A stretch of 18,464 nt of DNA from a virus (Duplodnaviria > Heunggongvirae > Uroviricota > Caudoviricetes), in the IMG/VR virus record IMGVR_UViG_2925846512_000001; one strand, 5' to 3'. Positions 8,765 to 14,712 of the stretch are shown one piece after another (position 1 is the stretch's first letter; every line of letters begins with the position of its first letter). Position numbers and translations under genes: made by a program. Under the pieces are notes generated by a model. That model saw nothing but the letters and a program-made list of their open reading frames with translations. It did not search any database and was not told the DNA's origin.

Positions 8765-11752
8765 ATGAGCTTAAGCGATCAGGTGGTAATGGCCACCAGC
8801 ATAGAAACGCTGATCGAGCTGCTAAAGAACCTGCCCGATTATGGGCGGGTTTCGTATGTGGTGACAGCGAAGGGAGACGAGGTAAAAACAGCGTTTGATA
8901 TCGTCGATGCCTCAGCTCTTTTGGTATCCAATACTCTGGATGGGAAAATTAATCCTGACTATCCCCAGGAACTTCAGCCGCGCGACCGGACCCGCGCATC
9001 CAGCCTTCTTCAGGTTAACCAGATATCCAAAGATTTGCGGCCTGCTCAGCTTACTGATTCCGGTTTATCCAGCCATGGCGCGCCGATAATTGGTGAGGAC
9101 AATGCCGTTGAGTCAGGTAATGGACGGACCATGGGGATCATCAAAGCCTATCAGGACGGTAATGCGGATCGGTATCGGGAGTACCTGATTGAACATGCGA
9201 CCGAATTCGGCATACGGCCTGAAAAGGTTGAATCAATGACGGCTCCGGTACTGGTGCGCCGCCGGTTAACGAAGGTTGACCGTGTTCAGTTTGCCAAGGA
9301 CTCAAATATTTCTGATCTCCAGGAAATGGCAGCCAGTGAAAAGGCTTTTGTTGATGCCGACAGCATAACACCGGCGATGATGGCGTTGTTTAACCCGTCA
9401 GAAAGCGGAGATCTGCTTAGCCGCAGTAATGACGCGTTTATTCGCGGATTCATGACGCAAGTTGGTGCCACACAGGCGGCTGGCCTTGTAACTGAAGATG
9501 GGCGACCAACACGGCAACTTGTTGACCGTATACAAAACGCGATCTTTGCCAAGGCATATAAGGATGCGCGCCTGGTAAGGATGGTTGCAGAAGAACCTGA
9601 TCCGGATATGCGTAATGTTCTGACGGCGCTTAATGCGGCAGCCAATGATTTTGTCCAGATGCAGGCTTTATCAGGAGAAGCGCACAAGCAGGCTGTGACA
9701 ACTATTGTTGATGGCATTGAGACAGCGGATAGCCTCGATAAAAAGGCGCTGGCGGCATTGAAAGATGCGGTAGACTTGGTAAGGCAATCGAAGGAGTCAG
9801 GCCAGCATATTACCGATGTTATTGCTCAGGGGGATATGTTCAGCGAAACGGCCCCGGAAGTGAAAGCACTCGCGTTGTTCATCGTCGCGAATAACCGTAG
9901 CGCGAAGCGTATGGCCACCGCCTTTAAGTTGATGGCGCAACGTATCAATGATGAGTTACAGCACCAGGGCCAGGCGCTCGGGGATATGTTTGGCGGCGGC
10001 GATGTGTCGTTACAGGATATCCTTCGCCAGGTGTCTCAGGAACTGGAATACGAAGGCATGCAAGGGATATCCGGCGGTCTTTTCGAGTCCGTTTCCGGCG
10101 GTAGTTACAACGGTGTTGCTCCGTATACCAGTTTGCTATTACATCGGGCATCCGGCATCAAAGACATTATTCATCTGATCAGGCTGCTTTCCCGCACAGA
10201 TCCCCAGGATGAACAGCTTGTACAAGTGCTTGCGCATTTTGTTCGAATGCCTGTTGCCGACGTGAAAAAATGGTGCCGATTATTCGGTATCAGCAATTCG
10301 TTACTTCGCGGCTTGTTAAATCACGCATCCTCCCTTGGGCGCGATGGCTTTGACGAGATAGCGCAGGCGATAAAAAACGGAGATATGCCACCAGCTATTG
10401 ACTGGTTTTCCATTCGCCCAACCAGGGTGAAAGCATTCCTTAGCGCGGCGCATTCGGCATCACCATTGGCAGAAATGGTTCAGAGGTTGTCGCTCATATT
10501 CACAGACCATACCGCGTTGGGTGATCTGACTCTGGACGAGATGAAAGAAGCCTCCATTCAGTGGGCCGATCAACAAAATGAGGTTAACTCAGACTTCTTG
10601 CCAGCATTCAGGAAGGCCGTTAGTAAAGCTGATGATGCCCGTGGAATTCTGAAGGCATTTAAGGCATTGCAAAGTCAGGTTAATAAACATGTCGGTGATA
10701 TCGATGGGGTAACGGCGGAAGGCAGGGATATCCTTAAAGAGCACGGCATAACGCCAGAGTTTATTGATGAGATCAGGACTGATATGCAGCGTGAGGTCGT
10801 ATCGTCCCTGCAAATTGTAGCCAGGGCGTTGGCGGATGCTAATCCGAAGAGTGCGGCCATTGTTAACCGGGTTATTGGTGATATTGAAGCATCGGAGGGC
10901 ATGGGGGCGCTGAAACTCTTCCTTTCGCGAGCGTTTAATCCTAACGGCAATATTCTCCCTGGCATTATTGGTGAGGCTAAAAAGTATGTCAGTGAAGAAG
11001 AACTTGAGCAGCTTGACCAACTACTTAAGCGATTCTCATACAACCCGCAGACACGCTGGCAAATGAATCAGCGAAGTATGGGTTCGGTCCACGAGAAAGT
11101 GTTATCTGCCATGAACAGTGCGATCGCAAACTCATCCGTATCTGAAGAAAAAGCTCTTGAGTGGGCCGACTCTTTTATCACGGAAGAAGTGGAAGAAGCC
11201 CGCGCTGGACAGAATGGTGGGATAGACCTGCGCAAGGAACTTGCTGATATTTATCGCCTGACCGGCGGTAAAATTTCGACCTTATCAAAGGTGGTTCACC
11301 ACAAGGGAAGGGCATATGCAAATCTTAATGGTGTTGTTGCTGTCAATTTGAACGATGAAAATGCAAGTGCACTGTGGCACGAGCTGGGTCATCATCTTGA
11401 GTACAGTAACCCTGGTTTGTTAGAGAAAGCCCGGTCATTCCTGAAGGCCAATGTTGAAGGGGATAAGCCATCTTTCGTTAATATCGGTGGGCGTGGCAAG
11501 CCTGAATGGTGCTTCAGATCTCGATTGAGTAATATTTATATGGCGAAGGTATACCCGCCAGTCTCAGTGAGTAACTCCGGGAAAATTCGGCAGAAATCAC
11601 CGACCATTTCCAAAACGTCAGCAACGGAAGTATTCTCTATGGCTCTTCAGTTGTATCATGACAAAGAGGCCGCTGCCGCATCACTGATGAATGGTGACGG
11701 ATTGCTGGAACTGTTATTAGGTGTGGCAAAGGAGCTAAATAATGCAGATTAA
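8765..11752 (+). CDS. ddrB: DdrB, large dar-operon protein with an N-terminal ParB-like motif and a C-terminal HExxH motif
   Basis: 995 aa; ESGNGRT at 9113-9127 and WHELGHHLE at 11378-11392; P1 synteny. Confidence 0.85.
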   Translation: MSLSDQVVMATSIETLIELLKNLPDYGRVSYVVTAKGDEVKTAFDIVDASALLVSNTLDGKINPDYPQELQPRDRTRASSLLQVNQISKDLRPAQLTDSGLSSHGAPIIGEDNAVESGNGRTMGIIKAYQDGNADRYREYLIEHATEFGIRPEKVESMTAPVLVRRRLTKVDRVQFAKDSNISDLQEMAASEKAFVDADSITPAMMALFNPSESGDLLSRSNDAFIRGFMTQVGATQAAGLVTEDGRPTRQLVDRIQNAIFAKAYKDARLVRMVAEEPDPDMRNVLTALNAAANDFVQMQALSGEAHKQAVTTIVDGIETADSLDKKALAALKDAVDLVRQSKESGQHITDVIAQGDMFSETAPEVKALALFIVANNRSAKRMATAFKLMAQRINDELQHQGQALGDMFGGGDVSLQDILRQVSQELEYEGMQGISGGLFESVSGGSYNGVAPYTSLLLHRASGIKDIIHLIRLLSRTDPQDEQLVQVLAHFVRMPVADVKKWCRLFGISNSLLRGLLNHASSLGRDGFDEIAQAIKNGDMPPAIDWFSIRPTRVKAFLSAAHSASPLAEMVQRLSLIFTDHTALGDLTLDEMKEASIQWADQQNEVNSDFLPAFRKAVSKADDARGILKAFKALQSQVNKHVGDIDGVTAEGRDILKEHGITPEFIDEIRTDMQREVVSSLQIVARALADANPKSAAIVNRVIGDIEASEGMGALKLFLSRAFNPNGNILPGIIGEAKKYVSEEELEQLDQLLKRFSYNPQTRWQMNQRSMGSVHEKVLSAMNSAIANSSVSEEKALEWADSFITEEVEEARAGQNGGIDLRKELADIYRLTGGKISTLSKVVHHKGRAYANLNGVVAVNLNDENASALWHELGHHLEYSNPGLLEKARSFLKANVEGDKPSFVNIGGRGKPEWCFRSRLSNIYMAKVYPPVSVSNSGKIRQKSPTISKTSATEVFSMALQLYHDKEAAAASLMNGDGLLELLLGVAKELNNAD

Positions 11753-12050
11753 AATCGCAGCGCCATTAGGCGGAGATGCCATTATCGAATTTGATGATAA
11801 TGAAGAAGTTTCCGGGCGTTTAAGCATTATCTCCGGTGACATTACCGAGGACATGATCGCTGAAGCCATAGCTGGAGCAAATCCCAATAGCTATATGGGA
11901 TTCGTTAACACCCTTGATGCTCCCGCAAGTGATGTTCTCCGAACGCTGTATCTTTACGCTGGCTGGTTTGTTGATTGGCCAGCAGTAGATGGTGGCGATG
12001 AGGACGACGACGATGATTTTGGTGATCATATAGACCAGATCATATATTAA
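11742..12050 (+). CDS. hxr: Hxr, small very acidic protein
   Basis: 102 aa, overlaps the ddrB stop, RBS AAGGAG; last gene of the operon, as in P1. Confidence 0.75.
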   Translation: MQIKIAAPLGGDAIIEFDDNEEVSGRLSIISGDITEDMIAEAIAGANPNSYMGFVNTLDAPASDVLRTLYLYAGWFVDWPAVDGGDEDDDDDFGDHIDQIIY

Positions 12051-12052
12051 AG

Positions 12053-12078
12053 AAATCCCGCCAATCGGCGGGATTTTT
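12053..12078. terminator. Bidirectional intrinsic terminator between hxr and the convergent ssb operon
   Basis: AAATCCCGCC-AATC-GGCGGGATTT-TT, with an A-tract before and a T-tract after the stem. Confidence 0.85.
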
Positions 12079-12081
12079 ACC

Positions 12082-13176
12082 TCACGAGAAGCTCTTTTCT
12101 GATGTCAGCCAACAGTGCTCGTGCAAATCTCTCGGAGGTTTTTCGACAAATGCCTCTTCAGCCACATCCTGCCAGGGGATTTGTTTAGCCCATTCAGCTA
12201 TAGCGTTATGGTTTGCCGAGAATAACGGTATTGTATAGGCCTTCAGCCAGTCTAATGTGCTGGAGTTGTGTTTTTGAGCGTGATGTTTCGCATGGTGTTT
12301 GGCGATCACGATCGTAGGCACTACCCATTTACTACCGTCAGTCATTGTGAAGTGCATATTACGGGGAACAGATGACTTTTCCATCAACTCCCGAATCCCG
12401 GGAAATTTCCCCAAGATCAATCGGCGATATTCATCGCTATTGCGCCCACCAAACTCTTTGGCTTTGAATTCAAGATATGCTTCAGAAACGAGAGGCGAAT
12501 CCTCTGTGTTTAGAGTTATCGCCGTGAAAAAACCAGCAGGATTGTTTTTACTATGGGCCAACCGGTGATGCGAATCATAAAAGTACCCTTTCTCGCGTTC
12601 CGATGGTTTCGACAGCAACAGCAGGCGCGAGTCATAATTGGTTAAATTGCCAGTTATCACTGCATGAGCGCGATCGCTGATTTCCGCCGAGTTAATAACG
12701 ATGAAAAGATCGTGCGGTCCAGTAAAACCAGCCAGAGACACTTCGTTATTCAGACAATAGGTTATATAGACGCATCCCCATGTTTCACTGATATGCACCA
12801 ACCCTTTGTCAGGGTGCATTCTGAAATGATTGCCAAGAAAAGGGTGTTTTTGGGTAACTCGCTCCCAATAACGGAACATATAGTCAATTATTGTTTTTCG
12901 ACTATCGTTAATAGCAGGAGAAACAACCACTGTACGGGAACACGAATACAGTATTGTTTGCAGGATGCTAATCACTGCCACAATAGAGGTTTCCCCAATA
13001 CCATGTGGTGTGGTGGCAGTGACTTTGGCTCCGGTGTTCTTTATCGCGTTAATAATTTTTGCTTGATGAGGTGTTAACTCAATATCAAGCAACTCTTTCG
13101 CTGCCAGTTCCCAATTGTCTTTATACTGTTCTATCAGTGCTAACCAGGCAGATTCATTCTGTATACGATTAATCAC
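12082..13176 (-). CDS. Degenerate PacB-like terminase ATPase domain fused to an unrelated C-terminal domain
   Basis: 364 aa, GTG start after GAGGTGG. It aligns by eye with the recalled P1 PacB N-terminus (GYFYDSHHRLA, FTAITLNTEDSPLV, VITGNLT, LLLLSKP, FGGR, GKFP). Walker A reads HGIGET and Walker B reads FIVINS. Confidence 0.78.
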   Translation of the reverse strand: MINRIQNESAWLALIEQYKDNWELAAKELLDIELTPHQAKIINAIKNTGAKVTATTPHGIGETSIVAVISILQTILYSCSRTVVVSPAINDSRKTIIDYMFRYWERVTQKHPFLGNHFRMHPDKGLVHISETWGCVYITYCLNNEVSLAGFTGPHDLFIVINSAEISDRAHAVITGNLTNYDSRLLLLSKPSEREKGYFYDSHHRLAHSKNNPAGFFTAITLNTEDSPLVSEAYLEFKAKEFGGRNSDEYRRLILGKFPGIRELMEKSSVPRNMHFTMTDGSKWVVPTIVIAKHHAKHHAQKHNSSTLDWLKAYTIPLFSANHNAIAEWAKQIPWQDVAEEAFVEKPPRDLHEHCWLTSEKSFS

Positions 13177-13963
13177 TTTCCACCTCTTCCGTGGTGTTTT
13201 CTCGCAGTTCTGTTAATGCAGCACGACACAGGTTCCGGGCTTTGGCTATAGCCACACTTTTTACCTCATCCGTCATTGTGCAGGTAATGTACTGATCGAG
13301 TTCTTCAGCTCGGATGATGCTTTTCCCTATCATAAACTCTATTTGCCAGAGCAGATCGGCATCCATCGCCAGTATTTCAGCCTGGCCTTCTGGGCCTGCG
13401 GGGAAGCAAACATAAGACTGTTTGCCCAGGCCGATAACTCGACAACTTGCTTCAAGAATTGCACGCTTGAGGTCTGACTTTGTAACTGAAACAGGTTGAT
13501 TTTCACCTGTGATTACGCCGTTGACATGGACGTGGAAGGGCATGTAGCTTGAAATTCGCTCTACTTTCCATACGCCAGCAAGCGATCCTTCATGCAGCAC
13601 GATGGGGGTAACCGCGAGTTTCATCTCACCATATAACTGCTGGCAGATAACTGGATTACTGAATACATCCAGAGGTTCACACTCAAACAGCGGCGCAATC
13701 TGCATGAGGTCCATCATGGTCATACCAGGGGTACGAGCAGTAATGAATCTGCGCATTCCAGTATCCATTGTGCGCCAGATAGCTACACCATGCTTTTTGC
13801 TCACTTCTTCAGTAAAGCCAAGGTGGCACATGATGGTTTTTTCGATAGCCAGATCAGAGATAGAAACCTTTTCGCCTGGCACTCCATCGTTATTGATGGT
13901 CACTTCGACACTCTGGCCATTACGTAGGCGGTATTGAATGGTTTTAGTATTTTGTGCTGTCAT
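13169..13963 (-). CDS. Hypothetical protein (264 aa)
   Basis: Long ORF with ATG start whose stop overlaps the next gene's start by 8 nt; no recognised domain. Confidence 0.8.
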   Translation of the reverse strand: MTAQNTKTIQYRLRNGQSVEVTINNDGVPGEKVSISDLAIEKTIMCHLGFTEEVSKKHGVAIWRTMDTGMRRFITARTPGMTMMDLMQIAPLFECEPLDVFSNPVICQQLYGEMKLAVTPIVLHEGSLAGVWKVERISSYMPFHVHVNGVITGENQPVSVTKSDLKRAILEASCRVIGLGKQSYVCFPAGPEGQAEILAMDADLLWQIEFMIGKSIIRAEELDQYITCTMTDEVKSVAIAKARNLCRAALTELRENTTEEVESD

Positions 13964-13977
13964 AGTCTTTTCTCTGC

Positions 13978-14160
13978 TTAAAAACTGATGTATTGCGCCT
14001 TCAGGTTGGTTAGGAATGTTTTCCCACCAGCGAAAGCAATATCTCGGGGTGTTCTATTCGTTAAAAGCGCGTGCCATTGCCAACTTTGGCGTTTTTGAGC
14101 GAGTTCGTGCTTTTGTCGGCGTCTGGACCACCGCTTTTCTTTCAGTCGTTTTTTACACAT
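13978..14160 (-). CDS. Small basic hypothetical protein (60 aa)
   Basis: Its ATG directly abuts the ssb TGA, and it fills the gap to the next ORF (14 nt). The N-terminus is Arg/Lys-rich. Confidence 0.55.
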   Translation of the reverse strand: MCKKRLKEKRWSRRRQKHELAQKRQSWQWHALLTNRTPRDIAFAGGKTFLTNLKAQYISF

Positions 14161-14649
14161 TCAAAACGGAATATCGTCGTCAAAGTCCATTGGAGGTTCG
14201 TTATTGGCGTTGCTCTGAGGTTTACCGCCACCACTGTATTGCTGGTGGTTTTGAGGTTGGTTTGATTGCCCCCAGCCATTTGAGGACTGTGAATCGTCAC
14301 GGCGAGCGCCGATCATTTGCATGGTGCCGCCCTGGCTGACGATAATTTCCGTCGTGTAACGTTCTACACCGGCGTCATCTGTCCACTTACGGGTTTTAAG
14401 TTTCCCTTCGATGTAGACCTGAGAACCTTTTCGTAAATATTCACTCGCAATTTCAGCAAGTTTTCCGAACAAAACTACTTTATGCCATTCTGTTTGCTCT
14501 TTCTGTTGGCCCGTTTGCTTGTCGCGCCATGATTCATTCGTTGCGATGCTGAGTCTTCCGACCGCTCCGCCATTTGGTATATACCTGATCTCCGGGTCTT
14601 GCCCCAGGGTACCAATCAGGATGACTTTGTTTACACCGCGTTGTGCCAC
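14161..14649 (-). CDS. ssb: Single-stranded DNA-binding protein
   Basis: 162 aa, GTG start; OB-fold motifs ([29 protein letters not shown]) and the acidic tail DFDDDIPF. Confidence 0.97.
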
Positions 14650-14669
14650 TTTTCTTACCTAATAAAATA

Positions 14670-14686
14670 AATTAATTAGAGCAATA
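14670..14686 (-). promoter_or_regulatory. C1 repressor operator (Op21-like) upstream of ssb
   Basis: The minus strand reads ATTGCTCTAATTAATTT, 1 mismatch from the P1 C1 consensus ATTGCTCTAATAAATTT. Confidence 0.88.
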
Positions 14687-14712
14687 ATGTATATCTTTGA
14701 AACGTGGCTAAC

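Follow-up and report, generated by a model that had tools for sequence, protein, structure and literature searches.

Introduction

Bacteria recognize tailed phages to a large extent by the large terminase subunit (TerL), one of the main proteins detected, through sensors such as Avs1-3 and Upx. EcAvs2 and Upx sense the ATPase domain of TerL (PMC13601566). Two kinds of phage protein with TerL-ATPase-like folds, T4 vs.8 and the pair Ksap1 and Ksap2, engage Avs2, and anti-defence was suggested as one possible function (PMC13601566). The vs.8 protein is an uncharacterised stand-alone paralog of the ATPase domain of gp17 (PMC13601566). Ksap1 and Ksap2 are small phage proteins that activate KpAvs2, and they sit in the sensor pocket of a terminase-sensing immune protein (PMC11564622, PMC13601566). 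Here we describe a gene in a stretch of 18,464 nucleotides from a tailed phage (IMG/VR record IMGVR_UViG_2925846512_000001), and the whole stretch is called the window below. The gene encodes a paralog of the ATPase domain of the P1 terminase PacB from which the catalytic motifs have been lost. We conclude that the paralog is a selected, binding-only pseudo-terminase. No description of a catalytically dead terminase paralog was found in a literature search of incomplete coverage.

Papers of 2024-2026 report phage proteins with terminase-ATPase-like folds (Ksap1/2 and T4 vs.8), and the family of the present paralog offers a natural experiment on their purpose, being terminase-derived, free of catalysis, selected and optional, and found in the genetically tractable P1-like phage-plasmids of Escherichia coli.

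Homology to the ATPase domain of PacB

A preliminary description, made from the sequence letters, had placed a catalytically dead copy of the PacB ATPase domain at positions 12397-13176 on the minus strand. These coordinates cover residues 1-260 of a longer open reading frame (ORF; Table 1), whose additional 100 or so residues form a separate domain that was not mentioned. P1 PacB was translated from NC_005856 (91722-93206) and compared by BLASTP. Residues 11-272 of the paralog align with residues 11-274 of PacB with 93 identities over 269 positions (35%), 56% positives, 12 gap positions and an E-value of 2e-50. The PacB strings given in the preliminary description are all correct: GYFYDSHHRLA is identical in the two proteins, FTAITLNTEDSPLV of the paralog pairs with FTAIILNSEESPLV, and LAGFTGPHDL pairs with LAGEHADHLL.

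According to the PHROGs profiles, residues 1-364 of the paralog match positions 1-359 (of 359) of the uncharacterised phrog_5902 with an E-value of 5.7e-184, and a weaker match is obtained to phrog_2, the terminase large subunit (E-value 1e-7). The AlphaFold2 (AF2) model, based on a 90-sequence alignment, has a mean predicted local distance difference test (pLDDT) value of 88, with values above 90 across the N-terminal domain. When this model was compared with the PDB by Foldseek, the best matches were Sf6 gp2, the ATPase domain of P74-26 TerL and T4 gp17 (E-values 1e-9 to 1e-7), all of which are TerL ATPase domains. The proposed homology to PacB is thus borne out by both BLASTP and Foldseek, and the protein is a true paralog of the PacB ATPase domain. 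At 90% identity, the protein falls in a cluster of 851 members, the representative of which has 364 residues and is 98% identical to the window protein.

Loss of the catalytic motifs

One of the six features that define a large terminase subunit, the homologous ATPase domain, is present in the paralog, and the other five are absent. The Walker A pattern GxxxxGK[ST] is broken, as GHGTGKS is aligned with PHGIGET and the lysine and serine positions are occupied by Glu62 and Thr63. The Walker B pattern hhhhDE is replaced by FIVINS, without the D161 and E162 that all of 16 active relatives share. In the C (coupling) motif, Q190 and T192 never differ among the 16 active PacB-type TerLs, whereas the dead clade described below has not conserved them. 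The alignment with PacB ends at residue 272, and the RNase H-like nuclease domain is absent. Finally, the gene does not adjoin that of the small subunit in the late packaging operon and is not essential: it is located in the ssb-isaA operon by hxr, and P1 and most P1-like plasmids are without it. The losses of Walker A and Walker B claimed in the preliminary description, together with the GAA codon of Glu62, are seen in the alignment, and the change of SQPT to SKPS in the C-motif adds a third loss. The protein is no terminase; it belongs to phrog_5902 and to a dead PacB-like clade.

As the P-loop lysine, the Mg-binding hydroxyl group, the Walker B acids and the coupling motif are all missing, the domain cannot act as a motor. 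As the nuclease is missing, the paralog cannot cut. Therefore, the paralog probably acts by binding. Normal ATP binding has probably been lost as well.

An exhaustive HMMER search against 1.8 billion representatives returned 643 relatives, nearly all of which are canonical terminases with GK[ST] and DE. The top-scoring relatives differ from these: P0004, P0006, P0008, P0009, P0011, P0012, P0015, P0016, P0044 and P0059 have neither motif. In a maximum-likelihood tree of the ATPase domain, 11 of the 12 motif-less representatives, the window protein included, form one clade with a Shimodaira-Hasegawa-like approximate likelihood ratio test (SH-aLRT) value of 100. The clade adjoins P1 PacB and the nearest active relative of PacB. 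The twelfth representative, P0042, corresponds to an independent loss of the motifs. The preliminary description had left it to orthologs whether the Walker loss is conserved, and the loss is found throughout the 11-member clade. The loss of Walker A and Walker B is ancient and common to the whole clade, and the window allele is no one-off mutant.

The columns of the active and dead groups were also compared. Nineteen positions that are strongly conserved in the 16 active PacB-type TerLs are free in the dead clade, and all of them are located in or beside the ATP-handling motifs (they include Q37, S56-G57-H58, K62, S63, H152, D161, E162, S164, R184, Q190 and T192). The position of the former P-loop lysine is occupied by E, R, H, T, M, I or C across the clade. 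W22, Y198, D226, R251 and P259 are conserved in the dead clade only. Active and dead proteins alike retain the N-terminal helices and the GYFYDSHH segment as conserved parts. A conserved fold with freed ATP positions is the pattern expected where the fold serves binding and the chemistry has been given up.

Selection and distribution

The ratio of nonsynonymous to synonymous substitution rates (dN/dS) was calculated for four distinct sequences with nucleotide identity down to 94%, namely the window sequence (exactly that of the G002 copy, L006), L007, L015 and L016. In all four, the frame is open and the dead motifs are unchanged. The pairwise dN/dS values of the paralog are 0.10-0.36, lower in the C-terminal domain, and those of isaA are 0.03-0.22 for comparison. 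PLSDB contains 594 records with pacB, 336 with isaA and 120 with the paralog, so that about one in five P1-like plasmids carries the paralog. In 119 of the 120 plasmids with a match, at least 80% of the gene is covered at 90% identity or higher.

The presence of a real pacB elsewhere was checked in the two nearest records, G001 and G002, and each of them carries an intact pacB plus the paralog. The preliminary description had favoured a maintained pseudo-enzyme because of the intact frame and the strong ribosome-binding site, which agrees with the open frames, the dN/dS values and the pacB beside the paralog in the nearest genomes. It had also taken the gene for a second copy beside the real pacAB of P1. 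A second copy is indeed seen in G001 and G002, but the window is only P1-like and P1 itself lacks the gene. The paralog is an accessory gene that, according to the substitution pattern, is kept by purifying selection.

Two deviating copies were observed. In the Escherichia albertii plasmid pEA13_2 (L017:1379-3777), the gene is split by the IS4-like insertion sequence ISEc60, and this is the sole disrupted copy among the 120 PLSDB matches. In vB_EcoM-813R1 (L002:4583-5676), the only phage-collection record with the whole gene, alignment with the window leaves a gap of 1 bp close to the 3' end, and the annotated protein is shorter, with 356 residues.

The pacB genes of the two nearest records (L004:1501-2982 and L005:1501-2982) are mosaic relative to each other. 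Residues 1-39 are identical, the ATPase residues 40-260 are deeply divergent, with a dS of about 2.9 and a dN/dS of 0.06, and the nuclease half shows little difference, with a dS of 0.67; the dS of PacA is 0.15. The pacB matches in PLSDB fall mainly into two identity bands, of 99% or more and of 80-90%. The ATPase domain of the terminase thus seems to exist in two ancient allelic classes that are exchanged by recombination.

Operon and timing of expression

The paralog is the last gene of the ssb-isaA operon, which is controlled by a C1 operator. In the ssb promoter region, 118 of 121 aligned bases match annotated P1, and the 17-bp C1 operator is identical. No terminator-like sites were detected on the minus strand from ssb to the paralog, and a strong hairpin terminator, shared with the convergent hxr gene, follows the paralog. 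Because the C1 operator is conserved, the minus strand is without a terminator and the reading frames are coupled, expression of the paralog is probably repressor-controlled and early lytic, and so would precede that of the late pacAB operon.

A 60-residue ORF (window 13978-14160, minus strand) fills the space from ssb to isaA, and the annotated P1 isaA (320 residues) starts in this region. As this upstream stretch is in another frame and the window isaA encodes 264 residues, the longer P1 start is doubtful.

No family was found for IsaA in Pfam, NCBIfam or PADLOC, it has no recognizable fold, and its alignment has a depth of about three effective sequences. The idea that IsaA is a paralog of the small terminase PacA was rejected, since there is no BLASTP similarity and no Pfam, NCBIfam or PADLOC family.

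The small C-terminal domain

The region that replaces the nuclease half is a small domain of two strands followed by three helices, for which a separate AF2 model has a pLDDT of 84.6. It matches the C-terminus of phrog_17928, is conserved in the orthologs P0004 and P0006 (48-53% identical), and stands alone in P0126. Several dead paralogs of about 260 residues are without it, and at least P0009 is located inside its contig and is hence complete. Against the PDB, the domain gave no matches by fold or by profile, and no nuclease match. In AFDB and BFVD, only uncharacterised phage-type proteins were matched. The sole named structural relative is the AFDB cluster representative I4A6A3, 'large polyvalent protein associated domain' (LPD), with an E-value of 6e-4, a template modelling (TM) score of 0.60 and 25% identity; the name is an automatic annotation, and no match of the small domain was obtained with the LPD models of Pfam. 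A language-model look-alike search of the ESM Atlas was uninformative for the small domain and for IsaA. Both domains of the paralog are near neutral in charge, with no hint of DNA binding.

In P0024 (L013:8001-10384), the window's domain order is reversed, with the small domain at the N-terminus and a dead TerL domain after it. The P0024 frame is cut short where a 548-residue ORF on the opposite strand begins, which may be an inserted mobile element. A second pair of IsaA and dead TerL at the start of L013 was considered and rejected. In P0156 and P0157, the small domain ends long coiled-coil proteins, and the N-terminus of P0157 is an SH3 domain like that of R67-type dihydrofolate reductase (PF06442), an unusual architecture.

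Setting of the locus and its relatives

The window (18.5 kb) represents part of a P1-like phage-plasmid, with 94-99% identity by megablast to P1, RCS47, SJ46 and other Punavirus records. The gene order is the tail-fibre/cin region, lydA, lydB, hdf, darA, ddrA, ddrB and hxr (plus strand), then the dead paralog, isaA and ssb (minus strand), and then lyz, lydD, pro and prt. Next to the locus lies the dar anti-restriction operon, and the locus itself corresponds to the published variable hot spot RD-2 (PMC6906374). The P1 genes at this locus are dispensable (PMC10695390). Around the paralog, the stretches common to P1 and the window are only 11700-12050 and 13153-14700, and between them P1 has IS1 and an unrelated gene, isaB, so that the dead-paralog gene is absent from P1 itself. 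P1 isaB was considered as a remnant of the paralog gene and rejected: the BLASTP E-value is 0.08, the hhalign probability against the small-domain profile is 1%, and the shared stretches exclude the gene.

Table 1. Positions of the paralog gene, its parts and the neighbouring features in the window
Feature	Positions	Strand	Remarks
Full ORF, dead terminase paralog	12082..13176	-	364 residues; GTG start; stop codon 12082-12084
Shine-Dalgarno sequence AGAGGTG	13181..13187	-	4 nt upstream of the GTG start of the paralog
TerL/PacB-type ATPase-domain fold without catalytic motifs, residues 1-262	12391..13176	-	BLASTP, PHROGs, AF2, Foldseek
Degenerate Walker A, residues 56-64, TPHGIGETS (PacB SGHGTGKSD)	12985..13011	-	Glu62 encoded by GAA at 12991-12993
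Degenerate Walker B, residues 157-164, LFIVINSA (PacB LYIIDEAS)	12685..12708	-	Alignment to PacB
Degenerate C (coupling) motif, residues 189-192, SKPS (PacB-type SQPT)	12601..12612	-	Column comparison
Small phage-only domain (beta-beta, three helices), residues 263-364	12085..12390	-	Replaces the nuclease half
GC-rich hairpin terminator, 10-bp stem	12053..12076	.	Between convergent hxr and dead paralog; looks two-way
isaA, 264 residues	13169..13963	-	Stop overlaps the paralog start by 8 nt; phrog_2326, E-value 3e-149; 97% nucleotide identity to P1 isaA region
ssb, first gene of the operon	14161..14649	-	Similarity to P1
C1 repressor operator ATTGCTCTAATTAATTT	14670..14686	-	Identical to P1 Ossb (former Op21); within the ssb promoter region

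The locus is variable among relatives. SJ46 has an unknown 281-residue gene plus isaA and no paralog, and JL22 has a porin gene. The ssb locus of Ro157c2YLVW (L020:2267-4267) has a DUF2829/Tad2-like gene, then isaA, plus a gene for a 95-residue protein. This protein was considered as a carrier of the small domain and rejected.

The divergent P1/D6-type record L008 has, in order, a cre-like integrase gene, two small ORFs, and genes for a dUTPase, a Tad2-like protein (PF11195), IsaA and a dead paralog, followed by doc-phd. The paralog (48% identical) and IsaA (47% identical) follow the dUTPase and Tad2-like genes and are convergent on doc-phd (L008:6515-9101). This locus is different from that of the window, and the isaA and paralog frames overlap here too, by 14 nt. 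The two genes are separable, as IsaA is found alone and distant dead paralogs are found without IsaA. One dead paralog, P0009 (L009:7027-8795; 264 residues, 43% identical to PacB), is separated by 18 nt from the radical-SAM gene that precedes it; the surrounding array consists of small phage or plasmid genes, a ParE-like one among them.

Discussion

We favour the proposal, with a probability of roughly 0.4, that the paralog is an early-made terminase mimic in phage-host conflict, engaging host factors aimed at terminase. The paralog is a non-catalytic derivative of the phage's own PacB, in which the ATPase fold is kept, Walker A, Walker B, the coupling motif and the nuclease are lost, and a small phage-specific domain is present instead. 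Homology, fold, loss of the motifs, selection, conservation across the clade, accessory carriage and place in the operon are established by the analysis, whereas early expression, lack of nucleotide binding and any target are inferred. Transcribed together with ssb and isaA from the C1-repressed early promoter, the paralog would be made before the late PacB. As a structural mimic of the TerL ATPase domain, it would then engage Avs1-3- or Upx-like sensors, or other terminase-binding inhibitors. Its role would be one of accessory counter-defence, in which the small C-terminal domain would provide a further module for binding. Conflict is preferred to housekeeping because the gene is optional and lies in a hot spot, because Tad2-like anti-defence genes are present at the locus beside dar in relatives, and because the small module is promiscuous. 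Among the three roles offered in the preliminary description (a poison of competing packaging motors, a decoy or antagonist for terminase-sensing defences, and a brake on the phage's own packaging), the one in terminase-sensing immunity fits the genomic context best. Repressor control, optional carriage and the presence of one paralog allele beside deeply differing alleles of the PacB ATPase domain agree less well with packaging interference or regulation.

Several points weigh against a counter-defence mimic. What SeAvs3 and EcAvs2 read are residues of the active site and the ATP that the terminase has bound (PMC13601566), and the paralog has lost these. As the sensors read the very ATP site that is missing, a simple competitive decoy is disfavoured; the lost site could mean weak binding to the sensor, or binding without activation. 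Both vs.8 and Ksap1/2 activate the sensor and do not inhibit it. The distant dead paralogs are located in generic early-gene arrays of other temperate phages, with no recognized anti-defence neighbours. The early timing rests on the annotation of P1, and dN/dS values up to 0.36 indicate only moderate constraint. The paralog matched no family in Pfam, NCBIfam or PADLOC, and with the PADLOC models at E-values up to 1 no family was found for the paralog, IsaA or Hxr.

A more specific and rather doubtful proposal is that the family consists of stealth terminase mimics, that is, early, ATP-blind copies of the TerL ATPase domain that would occupy and blunt host receptors or inhibitors before the real enzyme appears. 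Loss of the ATP site would then be adaptive, since it would remove the ligand-dependent contacts that switch on Avs2 and Avs3. If this is true, the paralog would be the first case of an anti-defence protein that arose by duplication of the same protein that the immune system senses.

It is unlikely that the paralog serves packaging interference, in which the dead ATPase domain would keep the surfaces for PacA, the portal or motor subunits and would poison the terminase of a co-infecting or superinfecting P1-like phage. The dead clade did arise from PacB-type TerLs, its best-conserved part is the N-terminal helices common to PacB (W11, Y18, W22, A25-A26 and E28), and satellites such as phage-inducible chromosomal islands (PICIs) interfere with helper terminases. 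With a C1 operator, however, the protein should be scarce in lysogens, where exclusion is needed, and it would meet the PacAB of its own phage as well. Moreover, the same paralog allele (98.6% nucleotide identity) is present beside PacB variants that are only 88% identical and differ in the ATPase domain.

An equally improbable explanation, unrelated to immunity or packaging, is that IsaA and the dead ATPase scaffold form a complex that acts alongside Ssb on replication or recombination intermediates. The two genes share the operon with ssb, their frames overlap both in the window (8 nt) and in L008 (14 nt), and the pair recurs at another locus with 47-48% identity. The partnership is not a strict one, however: SJ46 and P1 have IsaA without the paralog, the PLSDB records number 336 against 120, and distant dead paralogs are without IsaA. 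Furthermore, IsaA belongs to no recognizable fold or family, and the near-neutral domains of the paralog are not DNA-binding-like.

There is little chance that the paralog regulates the phage's own packaging by keeping either PacA or the pac site from acting before the late PacB has accumulated. Such a role would suit its probable expression before the late pacAB operon and its retained N-terminal and lid-subdomain features of PacB, but PacA itself is late, and about 80% of the P1-like plasmids, and P1, package without this optional gene. A functionless relic, namely a decaying fragment of a duplicated pacB, is close to refuted, because the loss of all catalytic motifs, the dispensability, the IS interruption in one plasmid and the 1-bp indel in one phage record are outweighed by a frame that is open clade-wide at 30-50% identity, the dN/dS of 0.10-0.36, the residues conserved only in the dead clade, the second conserved domain fused in both orders, and the near-full length of 119 of 120 copies.

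Identification of the partner would reveal either a new principle of counter-defence, by mimicry of the sensed protein, or a further and new level at which packaging is controlled or interfered with. The family also matters for annotation: in about 120 PLSDB plasmids and in the 851-member cluster the product stands as 'hypothetical protein', and copies from metagenomes wrongly bear the label 'terminase large subunit'.

Comparison with known systems

The paralog shares with P1 PacB and the PacB-type TerLs the ATPase fold, the N-terminal helices, the Q-motif, the P-loop glycines and the GYFYDSHH segment. PacB differs in having the Walker A Lys/Ser, the Walker B Asp-Glu, SQPT and the nuclease domain, whereas the paralog is without these and has an added small domain. 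PacB is essential and encoded in the late pacAB operon, whereas the paralog is optional and encoded in the early ssb operon (PMC10695390).

The small domain resembles the LPD domains in the polyvalent proteins of phages and conjugative elements, in that it is a promiscuous module with varied fusion partners, and it differs from them in matching none of the LPD models of Pfam. The packaging-interference proteins of satellites, such as Ppi of the Staphylococcus aureus pathogenicity islands (SaPIs) and Rpp of PICIs, are likewise non-enzymatic and bind the phage terminase, and they are the model behind the proposed poison of competing packaging motors. Unlike the paralog, these proteins are not known to be homologous to TerL, have the small subunit as their target, and come from the satellite and not from the phage.

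Ksap1 and Ksap2 are similar to the paralog in being lineage-restricted and dispensable, with a reported resemblance to the TerL ATPase core. They differ in their much smaller size (Ksap1 has 74 residues), in lacking homology to TerL at the sequence level, and in being known solely as triggers.

Among published proteins, T4 vs.8 comes closest as an analogue in kind. In contrast to the paralog, vs.8 keeps Walker A (GKS) and Walker B (DE), is of T4-type TerL origin, and has no extra C-terminal domain. No significant profile match was obtained between the two proteins (hhalign probability 1.6%, E-value 0.03), and their Walker regions are aligned in register.

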